Of a stretch of DNA of 64,000 nucleotides, positions 2,650-61,235 are shown piece by piece; the first letter of the stretch is position 1, and the number at the start of each line of letters is the position of its first letter. Source of the stretch: a virus. Taxonomy: Duplodnaviria > Caudoviricetes. The notes beneath the pieces were generated by a model that worked only from the letters and a program-made list of their open reading frames with translations, had not been told where the DNA came from and did not search any database. A program made the translations under genes and the position numbers. Location: positions 42,783 through 106,782 of IMG/VR virus record IMGVR_UViG_3300025838_000023; one strand, 5' to 3'.

Positions 2650-4068
2650 TTAGAGTTCTGCGTTTTTCCGAACTTCATCAAAAGTGTATGTTTTCAACAT
2701 CATACCATTTTCAAAAACAGTAACCAATTGACTTTCTCTATCTCCTAAATCCTTTTCTGGAATAGTTTGGTATTTTCCGTTTTCATCTTTAATAAGTTCC
2801 AATCTTCCCTTTTTCGACATCTTACCTTTATCATCAACAGGGTCTTTATATACTTCCACCCATTCATCTCCAAGCTTTGCAGCAGAACACTTAAATGCAA
2901 ACTTTTGATCATCTCTCGAATGTCCCTGCAATAATTGGCCCCCCATTCCGAAGATAATACAATCAGTCGAATATCCATTATTAGTTACACAGTCAAGAAT
3001 ATATTTGATAGTTTCATGGCATAATCCATCACCATAGATCACTCCTATCTTTGGATTTAACACTTTATACCCTTTACTATTTATGGTATGTCCAAAGTAT
3101 TTATCCAATTCTCGAATAACACGAATGGAGGTTTCAACAGGATCACCACTATCAGGACGAACTACAAACTTTGCAAATCCTGTTTTTTGTCCACGATTAA
3201 GAATAGGCAATTTTAATTCTGTACCAAAAAATTCAATAGCCTTCCAAATATTATAACTATCAGATACAACACTTAATATTCCTTCTGGATATTCCTCAAC
3301 AAATCTACGATATGCATCAAATTCGTGCTCTCTACCATAGATGCAAGTCGTTGAATGTTCTGTAGCCGCTACCGAATGTCCAACTCCCTTATCTGCACCA
3401 TAATATCTTCGTGCATATACAATACCTTGAAGTGTATCAGTTCCTTTGAAATTTACTAGATGTGCGCTACCACCAATTCCAGCACTTTCCACACTAGAAA
3501 CCCCACGGAATCCAAAACAATTCAAATGAAAAGGAGAAACACCAGTATCACTACTAAACTTTGCGTATTGCCCTATGGTTTTTTTAATTTGATAACTTGT
3601 CGAACAAACCGAAATCGGGTACCATATTTCGTGTAAGACCGTTTCAGACCAATTGGTAAGCCATGCCAATTCTTCATCAGTAGATTCTACAATCACTAAA
3701 ACATTCCGAGTTCCAACTACTGATCCTTCTCTTACTGCACGAATTTTTATAGGCAATTTACCACCATGAACTTCAAGAATTCTTTCCCAACCTTTACGAT
3801 TGAAATATTCATGAGTAAAAAATACATCACCCAAAATATCATCAGCATCATCAAGCATCCAAGGCTCGACAACAACACCAGAGAAATATTTCTCTAATAC
3901 CATTTGTAGTCCGAAAAATACCGTTTCGTCATATTTTCCTCCCCTACTTTCCAAATAACTATAAATTACTTTAGTGTTTTTTGGATATTGCAACCAATGT
4001 GTTTCCTTATAAGCATCTGCCAAAAGGATCGTGTTTTCTGTTCGTCTTGTCATATTATCTTTTATCAT
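2650..4068 (-). CDS. nadV: nicotinamide phosphoribosyltransferase (NAMPT)
   Basis: DAYKETHWLQYP, FGFRG, ATEHS, VSDSY, RPDSGDP, FGMGG. Confidence 0.95.
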   Translation of the reverse strand: MIKDNMTRRTENTILLADAYKETHWLQYPKNTKVIYSYLESRGGKYDETVFFGLQMVLEKYFSGVVVEPWMLDDADDILGDVFFTHEYFNRKGWERILEVHGGKLPIKIRAVREGSVVGTRNVLVIVESTDEELAWLTNWSETVLHEIWYPISVCSTSYQIKKTIGQYAKFSSDTGVSPFHLNCFGFRGVSSVESAGIGGSAHLVNFKGTDTLQGIVYARRYYGADKGVGHSVAATEHSTTCIYGREHEFDAYRRFVEEYPEGILSVVSDSYNIWKAIEFFGTELKLPILNRGQKTGFAKFVVRPDSGDPVETSIRVIRELDKYFGHTINSKGYKVLNPKIGVIYGDGLCHETIKYILDCVTNNGYSTDCIIFGMGGQLLQGHSRDDQKFAFKCSAAKLGDEWVEVYKDPVDDKGKMSKKGRLELIKDENGKYQTIPEKDLGDRESQLVTVFENGMMLKTYTFDEVRKNAEL

Positions 4069-26468: not shown

Positions 26469-26789
26469 CTAAAAATTTTGTCTATAATAAATCATAAAAC
26501 TTTTCACAGTATTTTGATTGTCTTTATCTGTGTATATTTTTGCAGTCACATAACAATGAATCTTGCCATCTAAATAAGGCTTGTTATAAATATCCCACCA
26601 CATATTATAAGTCCCAGGATCGTTATAATAATTGCATGGAGACATATCATATTCTGTAACTCCTACATTAGTTTCAATAGAAGATGTATATTCTTGTATT
26701 GACGAACATGAGGATAAAAATAACAATGAAATCAATACCAATATAACAAAACAAAAATCAAATATTAATTGTATTTTATCATTTTTCAT
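26469..26789 (-). CDS. putative lipoprotein
   Basis: hydrophobic segment ending in LSSC lipobox. Confidence 0.55.
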   Translation of the reverse strand: MKNDKIQLIFDFCFVILVLISLLFLSSCSSIQEYTSSIETNVGVTEYDMSPCNYYNDPGTYNMWWDIYNKPYLDGKIHCYVTAKIYTDKDNQNTVKSFMIYYRQNF

Positions 26790-27673
26790 ATTACGGGATG
26801 AACATTGAAAACCGTCTCTAATTTTGCAATCTCAACTTCAATTTTAGGAACATAACCTTTCGGTAAACGATTCTCGATACCTGCAAATTCTACATTTTCA
26901 TCAACCACAAAGGTTAAACGTAAATCAGTTAAATTTAGCATTATTTGAGAAGATGTCCAAACTTTATAATTTGTTCTATATGGTTCTAAATATCCTAAAA
27001 CATTTTTTCTATGAGTTCTAAGCAATCTTAATAAATCTTCTGGTGTCTTTGCCATTCTTGCATCTTTATTAGCGAAAAATACACGACTTAACGTAGATTC
27101 TCTATCATCTCCATGTTGATACCCTTGATCAGGATAAGCAATACCGTGATTTGCTCTTACCACAATTTCATTCTTATCATGCTGTATAAACTTCGGCTTA
27201 CCAAAAGATAATTTCTCAATGGATAACAAACCATCTTTATGTCCTATTACAGTATGCCCTCCTAACCCACGATGATACAAATCTAATATCTTTGCAATTT
27301 TTCTTATATCACTATATCCTAAAGCAGTTCGTATTTTATGCCCATCTTCATTAAGTTTTGAATTTTCTCGTTTCTTATCATCCGTTCCTTCTTTTTCATC
27401 TTCCTTACCAGTCAATGTAGTATTAAGAATTCCAATACCTTCAGCATTCATACCTTCAGCATAATCAGTATCAATATCATACATATACGCACATTCAATA
27501 CCATTAATAATCTCTCTAACAATCTTTAGTTTCGGATAATAACAACGGTCACGATTTTTACACAGAATATATTTACCATCAATTAACGTAGAAACGGAAA
27601 CACATTCATTCAATAGCTCATTAGCCTTTATTTGCTTATATGCTTCTTGTAATAAAATCTCGTCTTTCTTCAT
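26786..27673 (-). CDS. Ntn-hydrolase-like (peptidase C45-type) protein
   Basis: LNE-CVSV, KNRDR, EGMN..GI, RANHG; N-terminal ILLQEAY leader. Confidence 0.55.
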   Translation of the reverse strand: MKKDEILLQEAYKQIKANELLNECVSVSTLIDGKYILCKNRDRCYYPKLKIVREIINGIECAYMYDIDTDYAEGMNAEGIGILNTTLTGKEDEKEGTDDKKRENSKLNEDGHKIRTALGYSDIRKIAKILDLYHRGLGGHTVIGHKDGLLSIEKLSFGKPKFIQHDKNEIVVRANHGIAYPDQGYQHGDDRESTLSRVFFANKDARMAKTPEDLLRLLRTHRKNVLGYLEPYRTNYKVWTSSQIMLNLTDLRLTFVVDENVEFAGIENRLPKGYVPKIEVEIAKLETVFNVHPVI

Positions 27674-27696
27674 ACTACTATTTAACAAAAATCGTA

Positions 27697-27981: not shown

Positions 27982-29223
27982 CTATTTTCTATTCTTGATA
28001 TCAGATAAAAGTTCTTCCAGAACCAAATTTAAGTTTTTAATTCCTAAATTCCCCTTTCCATGCACTCGCAAACCAACATTTTCATCTTCTACATCTCTAT
28101 CTCCAATTACTAACATAGTATGAGATTTTTCTTGTTCTGCCTTTCGTATCTTATTTTTAATGTTATCATTCGACAAATCAGATTTAACTCTAATACCACT
28201 ATACAATAATTTCATTTTAATAAATTCTGCATATTTCAGAACAGACTCGGTATTTTTAACCGTCATAATATTAATTTGTATTGGGGAAAGCCATAACGGA
28301 AAATTGCCATTATAATGTTCAATAAGAAATCCTATAAATCTTTCATGTGTACCCAATGGAGCACGATGAATACATAAAGGAGTTTCCTCAGTGTTATTTT
28401 CAGTTTTATATTTTAAATTGAATCTAGCAGGAACAGCAAAATCTATTTGGTTTGTGGCAAGAGTGAATTCTTTTCCTGCCGTTGACCAAACTTGAACATC
28501 AATTTTAGGACCATAAAATGCAGCTTCATTAGGAACTTCAACAAAATTAATACCACTTTTAATTAAAGCATTACGTAACATATCCTCGGTTTTCTTCCAT
28601 AATTCAGGAGAGTCTACAAATTTCTGGCCGAGTTTAGATGAGTCGTGAGTAGAAAACCGCATTAAATATTTTTCAATACCAAAGATTTTAAAATATTTGA
28701 GATACATTTCATTAACTGCATTGAATTCTTTTTCAAATTGATCTTCGGTACAATAAATATGTGCATCATTCATTTGCATACTTCTTACTCGCATTAATCC
28801 AAAAAGTTCTCCTGATTGTTCATAACGATAACAAGTCCCATATTCAGCAAGTCGTAAAGGTAAATCACGGTAGCTTCGAGGAGATGAACCAAATATTTTA
28901 TGATGATGTGGGCAGTTCATTGCTTTGAGATAATATTTCTCAATATTCCCACTCTCGCTTTCCATATTCATAAAAGGAAACATCCTATCCTCATAATATG
29001 GAAGATGCCCGCTTGTCAGATATAAATTTTCTCTAGCAATATGAGGGGTACGTACTCTATCATATCCCGCAAGAAATTCAGTTTCTTTTGCCAGTTTTTC
29101 AAGTTCTTCAATTAAAACCGTTCCACTTGGCAACCAAAGCGGAAGTCCTGCCCCCACATCATCATCAAAACAAAACAGTTTCAAAGTTTTCCCTATTTCC
29201 CTATGATCATTTATCTCTACCAT
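27982..29223 (-). CDS. thrS: threonyl-tRNA synthetase (catalytic and anticodon-binding domains only)
   Basis: DHREIG, KAMNCPHH, YRYEQSGELFGLMRVR, DAHI, AFYGPKID, IHRAPLGTHERF. Confidence 0.95.
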   Translation of the reverse strand: MVEINDHREIGKTLKLFCFDDDVGAGLPLWLPSGTVLIEELEKLAKETEFLAGYDRVRTPHIARENLYLTSGHLPYYEDRMFPFMNMESESGNIEKYYLKAMNCPHHHKIFGSSPRSYRDLPLRLAEYGTCYRYEQSGELFGLMRVRSMQMNDAHIYCTEDQFEKEFNAVNEMYLKYFKIFGIEKYLMRFSTHDSSKLGQKFVDSPELWKKTEDMLRNALIKSGINFVEVPNEAAFYGPKIDVQVWSTAGKEFTLATNQIDFAVPARFNLKYKTENNTEETPLCIHRAPLGTHERFIGFLIEHYNGNFPLWLSPIQINIMTVKNTESVLKYAEFIKMKLLYSGIRVKSDLSNDNIKNKIRKAEQEKSHTMLVIGDRDVEDENVGLRVHGKGNLGIKNLNLVLEELLSDIKNRK

Positions 29224-29574: not shown

Positions 29575-29832
29575 ATTACTTATTCTCCTTTGAGAGTTGA
29601 AGATTAATTACTTCCTCTACTGCTTGTCTTACTGCATCTTGATAATCTCTTGTACCAAATCTACGGCACAATGTCTCCAATTGCAAAGACAAAAAGGAAT
29701 TCGAAACCTTAAATTTCTTTGATCGGATTTTTTGGATGTCTCTTCTCGATAATGTTTGTAAGTCATTTGTATTCATAATGCTCATATATTATCACCACTT
29801 TATTGTTTTGTCAATGAGTTTTTTAAAATTTT

Positions 29833-29982
29833 TGGAGTTCCAGTAGGCTACGATCCTACATTATCTATGATAGTTACCGAAATAACCTCATTACGGCGAT
29901 TTGAGTTCATCCACTCCATCACTTCCGAATACTCTCTCTTTTTATGAGAGGATGTTTACCAATTTCATCATGGTTTAGCTCC
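29833..29982 (-). ncRNA. tRNA-Leu-like RNA with a ~75-nt variable domain and degenerate anticodon loop
   Basis: D arm GATGAAATTGGTAAACATC, stem CTCTC-ATAAAAA-GAGAG, T arm GTAGG-ATCGTAG-CCTAC, CCA end. Confidence 0.55.
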
Positions 29983-30013: not shown

Positions 30014-30100
30014 TGGAGTGGGAGAGTGTTTTTCAACGAACCTTGGCATTTATGATAGCAACATCATAAATCTTCGGAGCAACCACCAAGCCTCCCCCAC
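30014..30100 (-). ncRNA. CCA-ended structured RNA (not a cloverleaf)
   Basis: 9-bp terminal stem GTGGGGGAG/CTCTCCCAC plus TCCA; internal CTTGG/CCAAG and ATTTATGAT/ATCATAAAT helices. Confidence 0.5.
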
Positions 30101-31366: not shown

Positions 31367-31447
31367 TGGTATTCCAGAAAGGACTTGCACCTTCATGAAT
31401 TCTATTTACTCTTTCTAAAGTTTAGGAAACTTAGGAGATACTGGAAT
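31367..31447 (-). tRNA. atypical tRNA-Arg(CCT), D arm absent
   Basis: acceptor ATTCCAG/CTGGAAT, loop TT-CCT-AA; same scaffold as 41344..41425. Confidence 0.6.
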
Positions 31448-31456
31448 ATTTAAAAT

Positions 31457-31835: not shown

Positions 31836-32765
31836 ATTTAAATTTTTCTTCTCATATACTGGCAAAAACATTTGAGATTCTTCAAAACTCTTATGCACTA
31901 AAGAAATTCCATTTTTCACACTATCTTCAATATCCCTCATAAATGGTGTCTGCCCTTTCGTATCCTTATTACCAGTTATATCTAGATAAGAATATATTAA
32001 ATTTATTGCCATCTCTTCCAATGCATTAACGTTCATCTTCTCTAAATCATCAATAAGAGATAAACTATAACGAAAAATCTTATCATCAATAGTTATTTTT
32101 ATTCTCTCATCAATAACAAATAAGAAATCTGTAGGAAACCTTACAAATATTTTCTTATCAGGAAGAGATTTTTGTAATATTTCCTGAAGTTTTCTTTCAA
32201 ATTCAAATTGTTCAGATATTGTCATTTTATTCTTCGTCAAAAATATCTCCACCGTTTAAATATGCATCAACTTCTTCAACAATAACATTCCATATTTCAT
32301 CTTCCGCTTCCGCACCATGCATCTTTTTAATATCCTTAATCATCCCATTGTCCCATTCTACTGTCATTACTGCACCATCAACAGTAATAGCCCTACGCTG
32401 ATACTCCTTGTTTGATGTAGTATTCATGTTCTTCAATCCAAATACATGCCCTGGAAATTCTTCTCTCAATATCTCTAAAATTTTCATACTAGTATATTAT
32501 CACAAGGATTTGAATTATCAATATCATTTTCAGATAATTGTTTTCTAATTTCAGATATAAACAAATCTATAATATATTGTTCCATATTCAATCCATAATA
32601 AAATTTGGCATCATCCACCATATCCTCATTCCAAGAAATTTTCATCTTCCTGCCATCAATCATTAAATACTTTCTAGGTGCAAAATCATTAAGTTGAATT
32701 TCATATTCTTTCAACTCTATAACATGATCAGGAAAGTGGTTTCTTAATACTTCTAATATATCCAT
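31812..32765 (-). other. three small hypothetical ORFs; 32227..32487 and 32484..32765 are paralogs
   Basis: MKILEILREEFPGHV vs MDILEVLRNHFPDHV. Confidence 0.65.
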
Positions 32766-32803
32766 TACAATATTATATCAGAAATTATTAACTTGTCAAA
32801 ATT

Positions 32804-32879
32804 TGGTCCGGTATCTGAGTGCTGCCCTCAGTATCTCCTGATCCCAAGTCAGGCGGATTTGCTGTCTTCCTCATACCGG
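32804..32879 (-). tRNA. tRNA-Pro(TGG)
   Basis: CCTGA-CTTGGGA-TCAGG, ACCA. Confidence 0.85.
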
Positions 32880-32888
32880 ATATAAAAT

Positions 32889-32972
32889 TGGTGCGTAGGG
32901 AGAGAATTTGCACTCTCACAGAATTAACGGGTGTTTTACAGACACTTGGACTCACTCTTGTCCAGCCGACGC
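32889..32972 (-). tRNA. tRNA-Tyr(GTA)
   Basis: loop CT-GTA-AA; near-copy of 41506..41588. Confidence 0.75.
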
Positions 32973-32984
32973 AATAAAAATTAT

Positions 32985-33239
32985 AATCTTAGTAATAGCC
33001 GATTTTCTGTATCTAGTTTTCTCATTTGACTATGTAATATTACTATCACATCTCCCCGTTTATAGAGAAGCGCACCAACCCGAAGATTAAAACGATCAGC
33101 ACCAATCTATCTTCTGTTTGGCTTGCACCGTAACCATCGTGGTATTAACAAGTATTACTACTCTCCCATCGGTTCTGCTGTGGTGTATCGAACTTCCTCT
33201 GCAATCCTTTGAAAGGTGCAGCGAGAAACTGCCAAGATT
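32985..33239 (-). ncRNA. rnpB: minimal RNase P RNA (~255 nt)
   Basis: P1 AATCTTGG/CTAAGATT; CR-I GAGGAAGTTCG; GGTGCAAG; AGTCAAATG; CR-V ACAGAAAATCGGCTAT. Confidence 0.85.
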
Positions 33240-33245
33240 AAAGTT

Positions 33246-33321
33246 TGGAGCCTGTTGAAAGACTTGCACTTTCCATATTTGAATTACCGATTCAATACAT
33301 CGCTATCTATGTTTAACAGGC
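33246..33321 (-). tRNA. tRNA-Thr(GGT)
   Basis: TTGAA-TCGGTAA-TTCAA (C at position 33), TCCA. Confidence 0.75.
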
Positions 33322-33331
33322 GTTTAAAAAT

Positions 33332-33473
33332 TGGTAGTTCGTGACGGATTCGCACCCTCATGTGTCATAATTTATTCTATAGTTGAATAAACAACACCAA
33401 ACGCTTTTAGTCTACCATTTTATTGCAAGTTTACGTAATTTTGCAATGATTTCGTGACGTTTAAGCTACAACT
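33332..33473 (-). ncRNA. tRNA-ended RNA with an internal multi-hairpin domain
   Basis: AGTTGT/ACGAACT-ACCA, T arm GAGGG-TGCGAAT-CCGTC, GTCA/TGAC helix enclosing two hairpins. Confidence 0.5.
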
Positions 33474-33496
33474 TATTGGCATATATTATTAAAAAT

Positions 33497-33571
33497 TGGC
33501 CGCTGATAGATTATTTGCAAATCTCTCTATGGTGTTTCAAGCCATTACATTCCTACATATGTTAACCAGCG
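33497..33571 (-). tRNA. tRNA-Phe(GAA), divergent paralog overlapping the end of the endonuclease ORF
   Basis: D arm identical to 34403..34477; loop TT-GAA-AC. Confidence 0.6.
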
Positions 33572-34337
33572 ATAAAAAAGTTTCTTTAGAATCACATTTA
33601 AGGAGTTTCTTATAAATATCTTCTTTAATTATCTTAACTTTATTAATAGATTCAGGATTCTGTTCAAATACTAATTTCATTTTGTTTTCATCGTCTCCCC
33701 ACCAGTAACCTTTAATTTCTAAATAAAAATCATAATCAACTAAATGAAAATCTGGAGTATACGAATGTTCACACTCATCTTTAATATAAGAGAAAGTGTA
33801 ATTATTAGTCCCTATTTTCTTCCAAGAAATTTCCAATTCTTCCATTTTAAGTGCAATATTTCGTTCCCATGTTCCTTGAACTTTTTGACCACTTACTTCA
33901 TACCATTTACATCTTCCACCTTTATTTTTCACCGACATTATTTTACTTAACTTTTTCTTGGTTTCTAAAGTATGTTTATGATTTTTCCAATATGGGGTAT
34001 TTTCGGTATAAAACTTTTTAACAGACAAAGCATTTTGCATCACTCTAGAATCTGTTTCTTTTGATAACCCTTTATTCCAAGCTACATGAGTTCCTTTAGT
34101 AATTGAAACAAACCCTATACCATTTTCATGTTTTCTCCATATATGACTACCTATTCCTGATTTAGTTGTTGATTTGAATTCACATTTCGGACAAATATAG
34201 TATCCATCTATAAACATATCATCTGTTATTTTCCTATGAACTTTCTTATTAGGGTTATTACATGCCTTTTTATGTGCTTTGATATTCGAATTTGATATCA
34301 TTCTATTACAATAAGGGCATTCGGTTTTTTGTCTCAT
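33537..34337 (-). CDS. free-standing homing-type endonuclease (zinc fingers, NUMOD-like repeats, PD-(D/E)XK domain)
   Basis: CPYC..H, CPKC..H, AWNKG, HTLETKKK, YTPDF...LEIKG. Confidence 0.75.
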   Translation of the reverse strand: MRQKTECPYCNRMISNSNIKAHKKACNNPNKKVHRKITDDMFIDGYYICPKCEFKSTTKSGIGSHIWRKHENGIGFVSITKGTHVAWNKGLSKETDSRVMQNALSVKKFYTENTPYWKNHKHTLETKKKLSKIMSVKNKGGRCKWYEVSGQKVQGTWERNIALKMEELEISWKKIGTNNYTFSYIKDECEHSYTPDFHLVDYDFYLEIKGYWWGDDENKMKLVFEQNPESINKVKIIKEDIYKKLLKCDSKETFLSLVNICRNVMA

Positions 34338-34402
34338 ATAATATATTTAACACATTCATATGAAATAAGTCTAACTCTTATCTATTAAAGCTATATTCAA
34401 AT

Positions 34403-34477
34403 TGGTGGCTGGAGAGGTATTTGCAACCCCCTGTATGGATTTTCAGTCCACCACATTCCTACATATGTTATCCAGCC
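34403..34477 (-). tRNA. tRNA-Phe(GAA)
   Basis: GTGGA-CTGAAAA-TCCAT, ACCA. Confidence 0.85.
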
Positions 34478-34489
34478 ATTTTTAAATTG

Positions 34490-34765
34490 TTATATTTTAT
34501 TTTGCATATAATCAGGAAATTTTATTGCAATCCCCTCTCCTTCATTTTCTCCAATTTCCCATCCATAACTGCAATAACTACTAAAATGTGTCTTTTCTTT
34601 ATATCCTACTACATAATCTGTTGGCACGGTATGAGGAATATAAACAGTCACAAATTCCCCGTATCCACAATCTTTTTTAATCCCCACACAAGACATTCCA
34701 TCATGTTCAGTAATAAACATATCTTCCGCATTAAACTCAATTGTCATTTTTAATTCGTATTTCAT
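34490..34765 (-). CDS. hypothetical protein
   Basis: ORF with an upstream TTGACA-17-TATAAT-like promoter. Confidence 0.6.
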   Translation of the reverse strand: MKYELKMTIEFNAEDMFITEHDGMSCVGIKKDCGYGEFVTVYIPHTVPTDYVVGYKEKTHFSSYCSYGWEIGENEGEGIAIKFPDYMQNKI

Positions 34766-34812
34766 GTTGATATTATATTACAAAATTACATAATGTCAAT
34801 ATGATTTTAAAT

Positions 34813-34916
34813 TGGAGGGCTTCAACAGGAACTTACCCTGTTCGTATTGTAACATAATCAATCTCGATCTTTCGAAGATTCACTCAGTATGATTATGGTA
34901 TACTACAATTTCGCCC
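34813..34916 (-). ncRNA. tRNA-ended RNA with a long rod replacing the D and anticodon arms
   Basis: GGGC/GCCC-TCCA, T-like arm AACAGG-GTAAGTT-CCTGTT, rod ATTGTAG/TTACAAT plus CATAATCA/TGATTATG. Confidence 0.5.
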
Positions 34917-34924
34917 ATTTAAAT

Positions 34925-35105
34925 TGGTTCTAGAGGTTAGATTCACACTAACTTAGTCTTGTCGAAGGTTTTAATTTTTGACTACTTAAAGCTTCTATAA
35001 ATTATTTTCTCGTAGTATGCCATGATAATACTCTTTGGACGCAATACTCATAATTTACTTACAGCAACTCTAAATTATAGGCGGGTTGAAATGTGTCACT
35101 CAGAA
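34925..35105 (-). ncRNA. tRNA-ended RNA with a ~135-nt internal domain
   Basis: TTCTGAG/CTCTAGAA-CCA, T arm GTTAG-TGTGAAT-CTAAC. Confidence 0.45.
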
Positions 35106-35171
35106 CATTGCAATCTTCTCAAGCACCTTTTTATTGGCTAATCGAATTCGCCACGCCGATCTTGAAAATTA

Positions 35172-35523
35172 TGGTGGAGAGCAGGGAGGATCGAACTCCC
35201 TGTCCTAAAAAAACTTCATTTATATATCTACATGCTTATATTCTTTAATGTATTCGGTAGCATAACAAAGAATAAAACTTTCTACCATAGTTAAATTATT
35301 TTCTAGCATCCGTCTCACAAATATAACGAGAAACTCGACGGACTATCCTATGCAGCACGTTTTCAAATATAGGAGTCTTTGAAACGTGGATTAACTTAAG
35401 CAGCTAACGCTAGTTCTGTATTATCAGCACTTATCTTTTCGATTGATTTTTAAAGAAGCCAACAATCATCTTCTACATGCAACAATAAACTCGATCTTTT
35501 TAGTCGAATCCAAGTAGCTCCCC
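35172..35523 (-). ncRNA. ssrA: tmRNA, tag (A)ADNTELALAA*
   Basis: 5' GGGGAGC...GGATTCGAC; G3:U70; 3' GGGAGTTCGATCCTCCC-TGCTCTCCACCA; tag codons 35396-35428. Confidence 0.95.
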
Positions 35524-35528
35524 AAAAA

Positions 35529-35603
35529 TGGTAGGCATGGAAGAAATTGCATCCTCACCAAGAGCTTCGTAAACTCGTGTGCTATCTGTTACACTACACG
35601 CCC
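35529..35603 (-). tRNA. tRNA-Arg(ACG)
   Basis: loop TT-ACG-AA, ACCA. Confidence 0.8.
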
Positions 35604-35727
35604 ATTTAAAATTCTTCGCTAAAAATAATACCTACCAAGGCACTAAGGAATTGAACCATTTATTCTTAGCGAAAAGTAATTGTAATAAGTTCTAGAATAT
35701 TTCAATTACTTTCTTTTATATAAAATT

Positions 35728-35803
35728 TGGTAGGCATGGAGAGAATCCCACTCTCACCCTTCGGTTTCGAAGACCGATGCGCTAATAATTACGCTACACG
35801 CCC
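35728..35803 (-). tRNA. tRNA-Arg(TCG)
   Basis: TCGGT-CTTCGAA-ACCGA, ACCA. Confidence 0.85.
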
Positions 35804-35810
35804 ATAAATT

Positions 35811-35885
35811 TGGGGGTTTAGTTCGGTTACTCTCCGAATCCGGTAAATTCACAGTTTACAGTGCTAATATTACACCACAAAACCC
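35811..35885 (-). tRNA. tRNA-His(GTG)
   Basis: GTAAA-CTGTGAA-TTTAC; G-1 opposite C73. Confidence 0.85.
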
Positions 35886-35899
35886 ATCTAAAAACTTTT

Positions 35900-36042
35900 G
35901 GCATTGTATTTCCGCTATACGAAAAGCTAATATTCGTCATAACCACTACTCACAATCAGAAGATATCATTCCGATATTCTATAGTGGGGTTGGCTTATTT
36001 GATTCCCATTAACTTTAAAGGATTCGAACCTTTGATTCTGCC
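35900..36042 (-). ncRNA. circularly permuted tRNA-like RNA, unit 2
   Basis: order: GGCAG, T arm AAAGG-TTCGAAT-CCTTT, AAAGTTAAT...ATTAGCTTT acceptor-like helix, D arm GTAT-AGCGGAA-ATAC, ATGCC. Confidence 0.7.
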
Positions 36043-36168
36043 TTATTATCTAAATTCATCCAAAACTTACCGTAGTCGTATTGCAAATCCGAGCCTATGC
36101 AGTTTTGGCAGTATTATATGTTATGGAGTCCACGTTCCACTCCCGTAACCTTTATAATACTGAAATTT

Positions 36169-36316
36169 GATGCCCTGCTACCATTACACCACAGATACCA
36201 CAAATCGTCATAACCAGCTACTATATCATATGATCATCTCTGATACTTCGTAGTGGGGTAGGCTTACTTGATTCATTGTTTATATACATGAACGGACTCG
36301 AACCGTTTCTTTCACC
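36169..36316 (-). ncRNA. circularly permuted tRNA-like RNA, unit 1
   Basis: order: GGTGA, T arm AACGG-TTCGAGT-CCGTT, CATGTAT...GTATCTG, D-like GTGTAATGGTAGCAG, GCATC; shares the cap motif with unit 2. Confidence 0.62.
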
Positions 36317-36336
36317 TTACATTCTTAAAAAATTAC

Positions 36337-36423
36337 CGGATGGCTGATATCCCGCCTACCATGCCCTTTTAGAGCACCATCGATTTAGCAAATCGCGCTA
36401 GTCACTCGACTAGTTAACCATCC
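36337..36423 (-). tRNA. tRNA-Ser(GCT), degenerate T arm, no encoded CCA
   Basis: loop TT-GCT-AA, V arm TGCTCT-AAA-AGGGCA. Confidence 0.55.
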
Positions 36424-36573
36424 ATATTAAAAAATTCTGAGTAAATATCAATCTCCCATAGGAGACAAATGTTATAGCTTTATTACATTAAGATTTGTTG
36501 TTACCATAAAAGCAATACTCTCACAACTCTAATCCGATTATTACTCAACGTTATCCGCTAAGATAACGAAAAT

Positions 36574-40607: not shown

Positions 40608-41354
40608 ATGAAGGTTCAATTCAAACATACAGAAGAATCAAAAGCAAACTTAAGTATAAAACGGAAAGAATGGCTTAAAAATAATCCTGATAAACATCCT
40701 TGGAAACGTCATGATAAATTTAAATCAAAACCATGCGAAAACGCAAAACAGTTTTTGAGAGATAATAATATTCCATTCATTGAAGAATATACTCCAGAAA
40801 ATATAGATAGAAATTATTCTATTGATATTGCATTACCTGATAAAATGATTTCTTTGGAGATAAACGGTAATCAACATTATAATCGAGACGGAACATTAAA
40901 ACCTTATTATCAGGAAAGACAAGATATATTAGAAAAAGCTGGATGGATAGTATACCAAATACATTATTCTGCATGTTTTAATCTTGATAAGTGGAAAGAT
41001 TTTTTTAATATACTTAAATATGCTGTGGTTAAAGTCGATTTCGATTATTTTACATATGTTCCTAAGAAATTAGAAAGAAAAACACTACATGATAAATGTG
41101 GTTGTGGTAATAAAAAACTTATTAAGTCTAAAAATTGTTTTATATGTAATAATAAAATGCCTAAAATATATAAAAGAAAAACTGTTAGACCAACAAAAGA
41201 ATTACTTACAAAATTAATATGGGAAAAACCATTAACTAAAATAGGAAAAGATTTTAATGTAACCGATAATGCTATAAGAAAATGGTGTAAATTATATAAC
41301 ATAACAGAATTTCCAAAACGTGGATATTGGCTGAAATCTAAATTGGTAAACTAG
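40608..41354 (+). CDS. free-standing homing-type endonuclease (NUMOD3, Vsr/DUF559-like nuclease, zinc finger, HTH)
   Basis: HTEESKANLS, YSIDIA...LEINGNQHY, GW.V..I, IGKDFNVTDNAIRKWCK. Confidence 0.75.
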   Translation: MKVQFKHTEESKANLSIKRKEWLKNNPDKHPWKRHDKFKSKPCENAKQFLRDNNIPFIEEYTPENIDRNYSIDIALPDKMISLEINGNQHYNRDGTLKPYYQERQDILEKAGWIVYQIHYSACFNLDKWKDFFNILKYAVVKVDFDYFTYVPKKLERKTLHDKCGCGNKKLIKSKNCFICNNKMPKIYKRKTVRPTKELLTKLIWEKPLTKIGKDFNVTDNAIRKWCKLYNITEFPKRGYWLKSKLVN

Positions 41355-41425
41355 ATGGGACTTGCACCCCACATGTTTTCTAATTACTCTTTCACCTGTT
41401 TAGAAGACAGAGGAGATACTAGTTT
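41344..41425 (-). tRNA. atypical tRNA-Arg(TCT), D arm absent
   Basis: CTGT-CTTCTAA-ACAG, extended V region, ACCA. Confidence 0.65.
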
Positions 41426-41428
41426 GTT

Positions 41429-41496
41429 TGGAGCCGTATAGGATATTGCAATCCTCCTGCTATATTACGAGTATAGGCTGTGTGCTTACATACGGC
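41429..41496 (-). tRNA. tRNA-Thr(CGT), reduced D arm
   Basis: CTATA-CTCGTAA-TATAG; identical to 43269..43336 except position 34. Confidence 0.75.
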
Positions 41497-41505
41497 ATAG
41501 AAAAT

Positions 41506-43261: not shown

Positions 43262-43268
43262 ATTAAAT

Positions 43269-43336
43269 TGGAGCCGTATAGGATATTGCAATCCTCCTGC
43301 TATATTACAAGTATAGGCTGTGTGCTTACATACGGC
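43269..43336 (-). tRNA. tRNA-Thr(TGT), reduced D arm
   Basis: CTATA-CTTGTAA-TATAG, TCCA. Confidence 0.75.
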
Positions 43337-43348
43337 ATTAATAAAATC

Positions 43349-59717: not shown

Positions 59718-61235
59718 ATGATTAGTTTTAAACAGTTTGTTCAAGAAGCTTTAGTAACAAAAACACTAGAGAATTGGCATGATATATTAGAAAAAAACGA
59801 ATATTTAAAGATTGCAACTGAACTTTTGAGTGATATCGAAAAACTTGGTGGTGAAGCATTAATTGTTGGTGGTGCAGTAAGAGATTTATTACTTGGAAAA
59901 ATACCCAAGGATGTTGATTTGGCTACTAATTGTCCAGTGAAAACTTTAGAAGCAAATTTTCATACAAATGATATAGGAAAGTCAAAAGATTTCGGAATCG
60001 TTAATATTTCTTACAAAGGATATGAATTTGAAGTAGCGAATTTTCGGACTGATGCAAAAACAAGTAATGGCAGACATCCAGACTCTGTAAATATCGTAAA
60101 TTCTTTTGAAGAGGATTCTAAACGTCGAGATATAACTTTCAATGCATTAGGATTGACAAAAGATGGAGTTATTTTAGATTATCAAGGTGGCATCGAAGAT
60201 TTAAACAATAAAATCATCAAAACTGTAGGTAATGCAAAGGAACGATTCATAGAGGATGGACTTAGGCTAGTAAGAATTTTGCGATTTTCTGCTAAAATGG
60301 GATTTACTATTGATCCTGATACAAAAGCCGCAGTTATTGAGTTAAAACACCTTACACATAACATATCCTCTGAAAGAATCAGGGATGAATTATATAAAGC
60401 AGCAACAAGTGGAAATTCTTTAGCGAACTTTATCGAACATTTAGATGACATTGGATTATTACAAGACTTATTGCCAGAATTAAAAGCATTACAGGGCAAA
60501 AAACATTTTCATTTGCATCATGTCGAGGGAGCAAAAGTAAAAAATAAGATTACTGGACAACTAAAACCGTTTGATATAGAAAATCCTGAACATCAAGATA
60601 CTACAAAACATGAAATAATACAAGGAGATGCTTATGATCACACCATAGCAGCAATAAGAGCATCTAAAGAAACCGATCCTGTTCATAACTTAGCAATAAT
60701 GCTGCATGACGTGGGTAAAGCAACAACACATAAAGAAGAAATTGAAGGCAAACATTCATATCACGGACACGAAAATGAATTATATTTGGTTGATGCCATT
60801 GCAACTCGATTAAAACTTCCTAATAAAGACAAAGAAGCGATAAAATTTGCTATGGAACATCATATGAAGGCACATAAGATCAAAGAACTTAATAAAAATA
60901 AGATTCTTGCACTTCGTCAGAATCCAAATTGGCCTGTTTTAAAATCTACGATATACTCAGATGAAGCTTCTCGTGGAAAGCCTTTATTTAATGAAGAAGA
61001 ATTCGAGGATAAAATGAACTACATCGAACAAATATACAATAAATTTGGAGAAAGTGCTGCATTTGAAAAAAGAATGTCAGAATTAATCACTGGAAAGATG
61101 ATTATGGAGTTGATACCAGGAATTAAAGGCACGGATATTGGAAGAATTAAAGAAATAGTTCGTCAATGGATAGTAGAAAACGATTTTGACGTAACAGCAA
61201 ACCAAGTGAAAGATAAAATAATATCACTTAAATAA
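59718..61235 (+). CDS. cca: tRNA nucleotidyltransferase (CCA-adding) with HD domain
   Basis: VGGAVRD, DVDLAT, RRDITFNAL, ED.LR.VR..RF, ERIRDE, LHDVGK. Confidence 0.9.
   Translation: MISFKQFVQEALVTKTLENWHDILEKNEYLKIATELLSDIEKLGGEALIVGGAVRDLLLGKIPKDVDLATNCPVKTLEANFHTNDIGKSKDFGIVNISYKGYEFEVANFRTDAKTSNGRHPDSVNIVNSFEEDSKRRDITFNALGLTKDGVILDYQGGIEDLNNKIIKTVGNAKERFIEDGLRLVRILRFSAKMGFTIDPDTKAAVIELKHLTHNISSERIRDELYKAATSGNSLANFIEHLDDIGLLQDLLPELKALQGKKHFHLHHVEGAKVKNKITGQLKPFDIENPEHQDTTKHEIIQGDAYDHTIAAIRASKETDPVHNLAIMLHDVGKATTHKEEIEGKHSYHGHENELYLVDAIATRLKLPNKDKEAIKFAMEHHMKAHKIKELNKNKILALRQNPNWPVLKSTIYSDEASRGKPLFNEEEFEDKMNYIEQIYNKFGESAAFEKRMSELITGKMIMELIPGIKGTDIGRIKEIVRQWIVENDFDVTANQVKDKIISLK

Follow-up and report, generated by a model that had tools for sequence, protein, structure and literature searches.

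The transfer RNA (tRNA) cluster of phage T4 ends in tRNA-Arg, rnaD (119 nucleotides (nt)) and rnaC (139 nt), beside the homing endonuclease gene segB, and RNAs of this kind (T4 species 1 and species 2) have been known since the 1970s. Published reviews and omics work describe RNAC and RNAD as real RNAs that are expressed late and have no known role (PMC3014915, PMC9697503). In our folding of T4 rnaC (z-score, −4.6), unrelated hairpins are enclosed by a terminal stem together with a canonical T arm (GGGUUCGAAUCCC), and rnaC is conserved in 740 phage records. YrlA, a non-coding Y RNA of bacteria and phages, likewise combines an acceptor-like stem with a T arm; in M. smegmatis, RNase P cleaves it and CCA is added (PMC4201824). 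Here we describe four CCA-ended elements, A to D (Table 1), in the tRNA array of an uncultured, T4-like phage from lakes. The stretch analysed (the window) is the right-hand 64 kb (64,000 nt) of the 106.8-kb IMG/VR contig IMGVR_UViG_3300025838_000023 (31% GC; estimated to be ~49% complete). An initial annotation, made from the letters of the window alone, had proposed that such elements keep the acceptor/T minihelix of a tRNA as a handle for the release of diverse cargo RNAs; C shows this layout, and B and D do so loosely, whereas A is better read as the remnant of a tRNA 3′ end and the cargo of C is unstructured. Our best explanation, tentative and given somewhat less than an even chance, is that C, B and perhaps D are offshoots of tRNA genes that are co-transcribed with their neighbours and released by RNase P and 3′ trimming, and that A is a remnant.

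Comparison with described systems

The likeness to T4 rnaC and rnaD lies in the shared orientation within a phage tRNA cluster, the tRNA-type ends, the non-tRNA interior, the similar sizes of the RNAs (119–139 nt in T4 and 104–150 nt here), the tandem placement of small RNAs at the distal end of the cluster and the presence of tRNA-Arg and a homing endonuclease gene nearby. The layout proposed in the initial annotation is already that of T4 rnaC (species 1 RNA). In detail the two systems differ: T4 rnaC has the canonical T loop UUCGAAU, its gene as annotated does not encode CCA and its interior is highly structured, whereas the elements described here have the loop UGYGAAU (A and C) or none (B and D), an encoded CCA and, in A and C, a weakly structured or unstructured interior. 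Searching the window with rnaC and rnaD (blastn, word size 7) gave no match inside A–D and nothing below E 0.2. YrlA is distinguished by an adjacent rsr (TROVE) gene, by its D arm and by a stem for Ro binding that carries GNCGAAN0–1G; the 106.8-kb record contains no match to PF05731 (TROVE/Ro60) over the ~49% of the genome that it covers, and no GNCGAAN0–1G motif was seen in B or C.

Transfer-messenger RNA (tmRNA) resembles the elements in having an acceptor stem, a T arm, CCA, no anticodon arm and a long helix at the junction, and B and C lie just downstream of the tmRNA gene of the phage. Neither could be assigned as a tmRNA: RF00023 matches only 35172–35523, and the acceptor pairs of B (G-C, G-C, G-C) and of C (U-A, U-G, U-A) lack G3:U70. 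The 18-codon open reading frame (ORF) of C has no tag-like ending, and no pseudoknots are evident.

Features shared by the four elements

Within the array, A–D are all found on the minus strand and terminate in an encoded CCA, in agreement with the earlier view that they occupy tRNA slots. The array (29.8–44.1 kb, minus strand) consists of some 45–50 tRNA-like units, nearly all with genomically encoded CCA, separated by AU-rich spacers of 7–12 nt. The strongest positional evidence is the sequence CCAATTT[AT]AA, of which there are 11 copies when both strands of the 106.8-kb contig are counted, all of them on the minus strand within the array; ordinary tRNAs precede nine, and two form the 3′ ends of B and C (motif CCAATTTAAA). 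The 5′ G of B is 8 nt past the CCA of C, which is the usual array spacer. Element A ends in CCAATTTTTAAA, and the end of D (CCATTTTTGAT) falls outside the motif.

As had been expected of standard tRNA finders, ARAGORN (default, -ps90 and with introns allowed) called none of A–D, and Rfam searches (gathering thresholds, and E ≤ 10 on small sub-windows) found no family for them, RF00005 included. Manual folding upheld for all four the absence of an anticodon arm (a stem of 5 base pairs (bp) and a 7-nt loop with U33 and a purine at 37). The ordinary-looking units of the array, with anticodons read by hand, serve all 20 amino acids, and A–D are therefore not needed as decoders. The interiors of A, B and C have a GC content of 29–30%, similar to the coding background (array tRNAs, mean of 47%). 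With the last 28 nt removed, the interiors align to no array tRNA better than shuffled sequence does; they have no paralogues or long-range complementarity elsewhere in the genome and share no motif beyond chance.

Table 1 Positions of the four elements and of associated features in the window
Feature	Position	Strand	Description
Element D	30014..30100	minus	87 nt; rod closed by 9 bp
Element A	33332..33473	minus	142 nt; tRNA-like in the 3′ 30 nt only
Sigma-70-type promoter TTGACA-16-TATAAT	34772..34799	minus	12/12 match; starts 13 nt past the CCA of B
Element B	34813..34916	minus	104 nt; three-way junction, Y-shaped
Element C	34925..35074	minus	150 nt; minihelix and CCA, 115-nt AU-rich interior
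tmRNA	35172..35523	minus	RF00023, 107 bits; tag ADNTELALAA; 97 nt upstream of C, shared RNA block
tRNA nucleotidyltransferase (CCA-adding enzyme)	59718..61235	plus	phrog_2244, E 1.4e-69

Structure of elements C, B and D

The full minihelix (a 7-bp acceptor stem on a 5-bp T stem, with discriminator and CCA) is present in C. Given a 5′ end at 35074, the acceptor stem forms 7/7 bp (UUUAGAG/CUCUAGA) with ACCA left over, and the T stem forms 5/5 bp (GUUAG/CUAAC) with the loop UGUGAAU, discriminator A and then CCA. The 5′ end originally assigned to C, 35105 (181 nt), gives only 5/7 acceptor pairs; a third candidate, 35001 (77 nt, tRNA-sized), gives 6/7. All 12 pairs of the minihelix are thus intact, with zero D-stem or anticodon-stem pairs left, a pattern that would not be expected from neutral, even decay of a tRNA; either the minihelix has been kept by selection or the interior was replaced recently. 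C is the best case of the four.

Element B is closed by a 4-bp terminal stem (GGGC/GCCC) and a GAA/GAA internal loop, continues as a rod of 7 + 8 + 7 bp and ends in UCCA. The position of the T arm, 3 nt from the terminal stem, is taken by a 7-bp hairpin with a 5-nt loop. Its minimum free energy (MFE) is −27.1 (z −2.98 against shuffles). In element D, a GC-rich terminal stem followed by UCCA surrounds a 10-bp hairpin and two small hairpins, without a T arm; none of 200 shuffles folded as well (z −3.35), and the fold is specific to the strand (−29.7 kcal/mol on the minus strand compared with −22.3 kcal/mol on the plus strand).

The more general structural description in the initial annotation therefore applies to some of the elements. 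A terminal stem had been seen in each, and is confirmed in C (7/7 bp) and D (9 bp) and reduced in B to the 4 bp and internal loop described above, but in A the best 4 bp are absent from the MFE fold. A T-like arm had been assigned to A, B and C; it is present in C (5/5 bp) and A (4/5 bp), whereas the hairpin of B is not T-like. Structured interiors are found in B and D but not in A (z −0.97) or C (z −0.16).

The position of D suggests a role in cis for such ends, because D starts 2 nt past the stop codon of the dTDP-4-dehydrorhamnose epimerase gene. The tRNA-like ends would then serve only to have long transcripts cut, so that mRNAs are parted from RNA blocks, or to shield 3′ ends from exonucleases, and the pieces would have no role of their own. 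RNase P cuts tRNA-like structures in polycistronic transcripts, which is in keeping with such a role. B and the unit that ends at 29833 each close an RNA block just upstream of promoter-like sites (perfect at 34799–34772; 10/12 at 29814); the perfect promoter just after B marks B as the end of its RNA block. The ordinary tRNA that ends at 32804 likewise has its CCA within a few bases of a second perfect TTGACA-16-TATAAT promoter (32799–32772, minus strand), and no intrinsic terminators were found at those block ends. C and A, however, sit among RNA genes that already supply processing sites, so that extra punctuation is unneeded there, and we consider a purely cis-acting role unlikely as an explanation of the set. 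As a side observation, an ORF of 91 amino acids has its start codon 7 nt past the −10 box of a promoter, which suggests that its mRNA is leaderless.

Element A and the traffic of mobile elements

Element A is tRNA-like over 33332–33361, which comprise a T arm (4/5 bp; loop UGCGAAU, fitting the phage consensus UGCRAxU), the 3′ strand of an acceptor stem and ACCA. A profile of the tRNAs of the phage itself (nhmmer) matches A at positions 47–76 only (E 0.02), and no split or trans partner for the acceptor strand was found within the window. The upstream part folds into two hairpins of 7 bp each, one of which has the 7-nt loop AACUAUA, and a 9-nt direct repeat, CGUCACGAA, lies near both ends of A. 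Element A is most likely a chimeric remnant, in which a tRNA 3′ end has been joined to unrelated sequence, rather than a designed RNA.

A adjoins a pair of tRNA-Phe(GAA) genes (33497–33571 and 34403–34477, minus strand; 75% identical) that flank an endonuclease-I-like ORF (33537–34337; phage endonuclease I domain, zinc fingers). The unit of tRNA-Phe genes and endonuclease looks like a homing cassette with its own tRNA copy. With a duplicated tRNA pair and an endonuclease ORF beside A, partial tRNA duplicates are to be expected.

Such rearrangement, visible here between A and B, raises the possibility that the elements are inert debris of a fast-evolving array, made of partial tRNA duplicates or recombination scars (A and C) and inserted inverted repeats (B) left by the traffic of homing endonucleases and mini-transposons; if transcribed, their RNAs would be degraded or irrelevant. 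In its favour are the presence of TnpB elements and mini-elements within the array, the direct repeat of A and the restriction of its tRNA-like sequence to the last 30 nt, the background-like GC content of the A, B and C interiors, the folds of A and C that are no better than chance, the strand symmetry of the B fold and the lack of conservation in relatives described below. A, and perhaps C, do resemble duplicated tRNA 3′ ends of the kind seen in tRNA pseudogenes, with mobile endonuclease and TnpB elements nearby. The C minihelix, however, is complete and perfectly paired although the D and anticodon stems are wholly gone, and B and D contain no recognisable tRNA-derived sequence. Intact array spacers bound B on both sides, and D has a minus-strand-specific fold that surpassed every one of its shuffles. 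Because the rest of the array is packed with spacers of 7–12 nt, junk of 100–150 nt would also need to have escaped deletion, which counts against debris. We regard this origin as a strong rival, only slightly less probable than the preferred explanation.

The 7-nt hairpin loop of A also bears on whether the elements could be aberrant but working tRNAs. Two paralogous units of 81–82 nt in the array (31367–31449 and 41344–41427, minus strand; 74% identical) lack a D arm; their anticodon loops are UUCCUAA and CUUCUAA (Arg CCU and UCU), and their anticodon stems show the compensatory changes AAGU/ACUU and CUGU/ACAG; judged by these features, they look like working tRNAs of aberrant architecture. 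For A–D themselves the same explanation is very unlikely. A 5-bp stem and a 7-nt loop with U33 and purine 37 are absent from B, C and D, an acceptor stem is missing from A, RF00005 gave no match at E ≤ 10 and all 20 amino acids are otherwise served. We rejected A as a decoder (loop CUA, which would read UAG), given A33 and U37 and a genome in which stop-codon recoding is not supported. When A was aligned globally with the odd tRNA-Arg at 31367, the significance of the match rested mostly on the T arm, and it was set aside.

Search for relatives

Searching GenBank phages with 32700–36500 (blastn) gave tRNA-sized matches only, a scan of IMG/VR with exact and degenerate DNA patterns (the 3′ end of C and the tmRNA tag) gave nothing, and the array-embedded proteins of 197 and 91 amino acids had no relatives. 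A neighbouring gene encoding 300 amino acids (26786–27688) has relatives at 57–71% identity, through which we collected 12 loci from IMG/VR, 42 from metagenomes and four contigs of the closest relative. Lack of conservation had been named beforehand as an outcome that would refute the proposal; neither blastn (A–D, viral loci) nor covariance models (B and D) revealed a homologue, so the elements count as not conserved at the distances available. These distances are large; even the tRNAs hardly align.

In the related loci, just one long CCA-ended unit is closed by a minihelix, and it is a tRNA-like gene interrupted by a group I intron of ~184 nt with core sequences like those of Azoarcus. This unit (2854–3111 of locus L018; 258 nt; z −6.0) has the anticodon stem UUCGG/CCGAA with GUA in the loop, and Rfam does not call it at the gathering threshold. 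A–D could not be explained as tRNAs bearing group I introns (~180 nt or more), because they are only 87–150 nt long and, unlike the L018 example, have no D or anticodon exon parts. ARAGORN run with the -i option also finds nothing at A–D, and its two intron calls, at 36009–36427, have poor acceptor stems.

Proposed origin and release

On the preferred explanation, A–D would be offshoots of the tRNA genes of the phage that retain, to differing degrees, the part read by processing enzymes, that is, a terminal helix on a T-type hairpin, a discriminator and an encoded CCA. C, B and, less surely, D would share transcripts with the tmRNA, tRNAs or mRNA beside them; cleavage by RNase P at the base of the terminal helix would give the 5′ end, and 3′ trimming would halt at the encoded CCA. 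The products would be small stable RNAs of 150, 104 and 87 nt (C, B and D, respectively), the ends of which could be kept intact by the CCA-adding enzyme of the phage. The T4 species 1 and 2 RNAs (rnaC and rnaD) arise from the T4 tRNA cluster by the same route. Our best guess for a function in trans would be the binding or titration of a factor that recognises tRNA. We infer transcription, cleavage sites, stability and function in trans of the elements from sequence and predicted folds; the presence of genes for a CCA-adding enzyme, an RNA ligase, a threonyl-tRNA synthetase (ThrRS) and a tmRNA in the phage is consistent with processing.

In favour of this explanation are the array-specific spacer motif of B and C, the intact minihelix of C, the folds of B and D and the parallel arrangement in T4. 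Several observations weigh against it. The 115-nt interior of C alone has a z-score of +0.2 at 30% GC, so its cargo is unstructured and of background composition, and by our own estimate the chance of a random 7-bp acceptor partner within about 300 nt is ~10%. The terminal stem of B is just 4 bp in length, on a hairpin whose loop is not T-like (3-nt linker), and B folds about equally well on the plus strand, which means that its rod may be a mere inverted repeat at the DNA level. D, which lacks the spacer motif, could simply be a 3′ structure of the mRNA, and no 5′ acceptor strand was found for A. The phage recurs in bog lakes (JGI samples 3300025390, 3300006109 and 3300025420), but ten further contigs of it, recovered from several lake metagenomes, match the region at 100% identity and so offer no variation. 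No counterparts of A–D were found by blastn in related viral loci, and covariance models, each built from the one sequence of B or of D, had no match in five whole viral records from relatives (595 kb) or in ~515 kb of related loci. In one relative (L018/G003), a tRNA array and tmRNA are similarly placed, but an ordinary tRNA-Ala stands after the tmRNA where C and B would be expected.

Two slots downstream of A, a gap of 269 nt (32977–33245, minus strand; 39% GC; overall fold z −0.76) holds a CR-I-like GAGGAAGUUCGAU (33199–33187) and a CR-V-like ACAGAAAAUCGGCUAU (33010–32995), 189 nt apart, for which a P4-like pairing is possible; the CR-V-like ACAGAA..GGCU motif is the sole copy in the genome. 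The RNase P RNA models RF00010 and RF02357 give nothing at E ≤ 10 for the candidate at 32985–33239. If this candidate were a phage RNase P RNA, the processing scenario would be more self-contained. A broader form of the scenario posits a tRNA-end economy of the phage, with odd tRNA elbows, its own CCA enzyme and possibly a minimal RNase P RNA that lacks a specificity domain, in which B, C and D would be released with the tRNAs as decoys or sponges for host defence nucleases that target tRNA, or for other tRNA-binding factors; we consider this quite improbable.

The array and the phage

The array as a whole is poorly covered by standard tools: ARAGORN at default settings detects 10 array tRNAs, and Rfam detects 11 at the gathering score and 16 at a looser setting. 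These finders overlook two thirds of the array because the T loops are unusual (UGCRAxU) and the D loops lack GG. In most of the phage tRNAs this T loop has G at position 55 in place of the near-universal U, which implies an altered tRNA elbow; the T loops of the relative L018 are mostly canonical UUCGA.

Further odd units were seen in the array, all on the minus strand. Two tRNA-Thr-like genes of 71 nt (41428–41498 and 43268–43338) are 99% identical and differ solely at the first anticodon position (CGU and UGU). A spacer of 124 nt between two tRNA-Arg genes (35604–35727; 23% GC) forms two long hairpins (z −3.6) and has no CCA end. Two similar units at 35885–36573 have canonical T arms (GGUUCGAAUCC and GGUUCGAGUCC) and common inserts of ~80 nt, which ARAGORN forces into intron-bearing tRNAs with poor acceptor stems.

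The contig also encodes a tail-sheath-stabiliser-like protein, a Dda-like helicase (~30% identical to that of the nearest deposited phages), GroEL and NAMPT. The CCA-adding enzyme is a possible maintenance enzyme for all of the CCA-ended units. The ThrRS (27982–29223, minus strand; 413 amino acids) is truncated: its closest homologues (596–612 amino acids) have an N-terminal TGS and editing region that it lacks. Apart from the copies of the phage itself, ThrRS homologues are bacterial only (75% identical, Verrucomicrobiota), which hints at the host phylum.

Implications

As the evidence comes from a single invariant sequence, the elements are a lead and not a result, and they are of interest mainly because the array to which they belong is so unusual overall. 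If the preferred explanation is true, anticodon-less RNAs with tRNA ends would arise repeatedly in phage tRNA clusters without a common sequence, which would argue for the minihelix as a general tag for processing and stability, or as a decoy, in the conflict between phage and host. The array would then provide a second, unrelated system in which to seek the function of the T4 species 1 and 2 RNAs, which has been unexplained for some fifty years.

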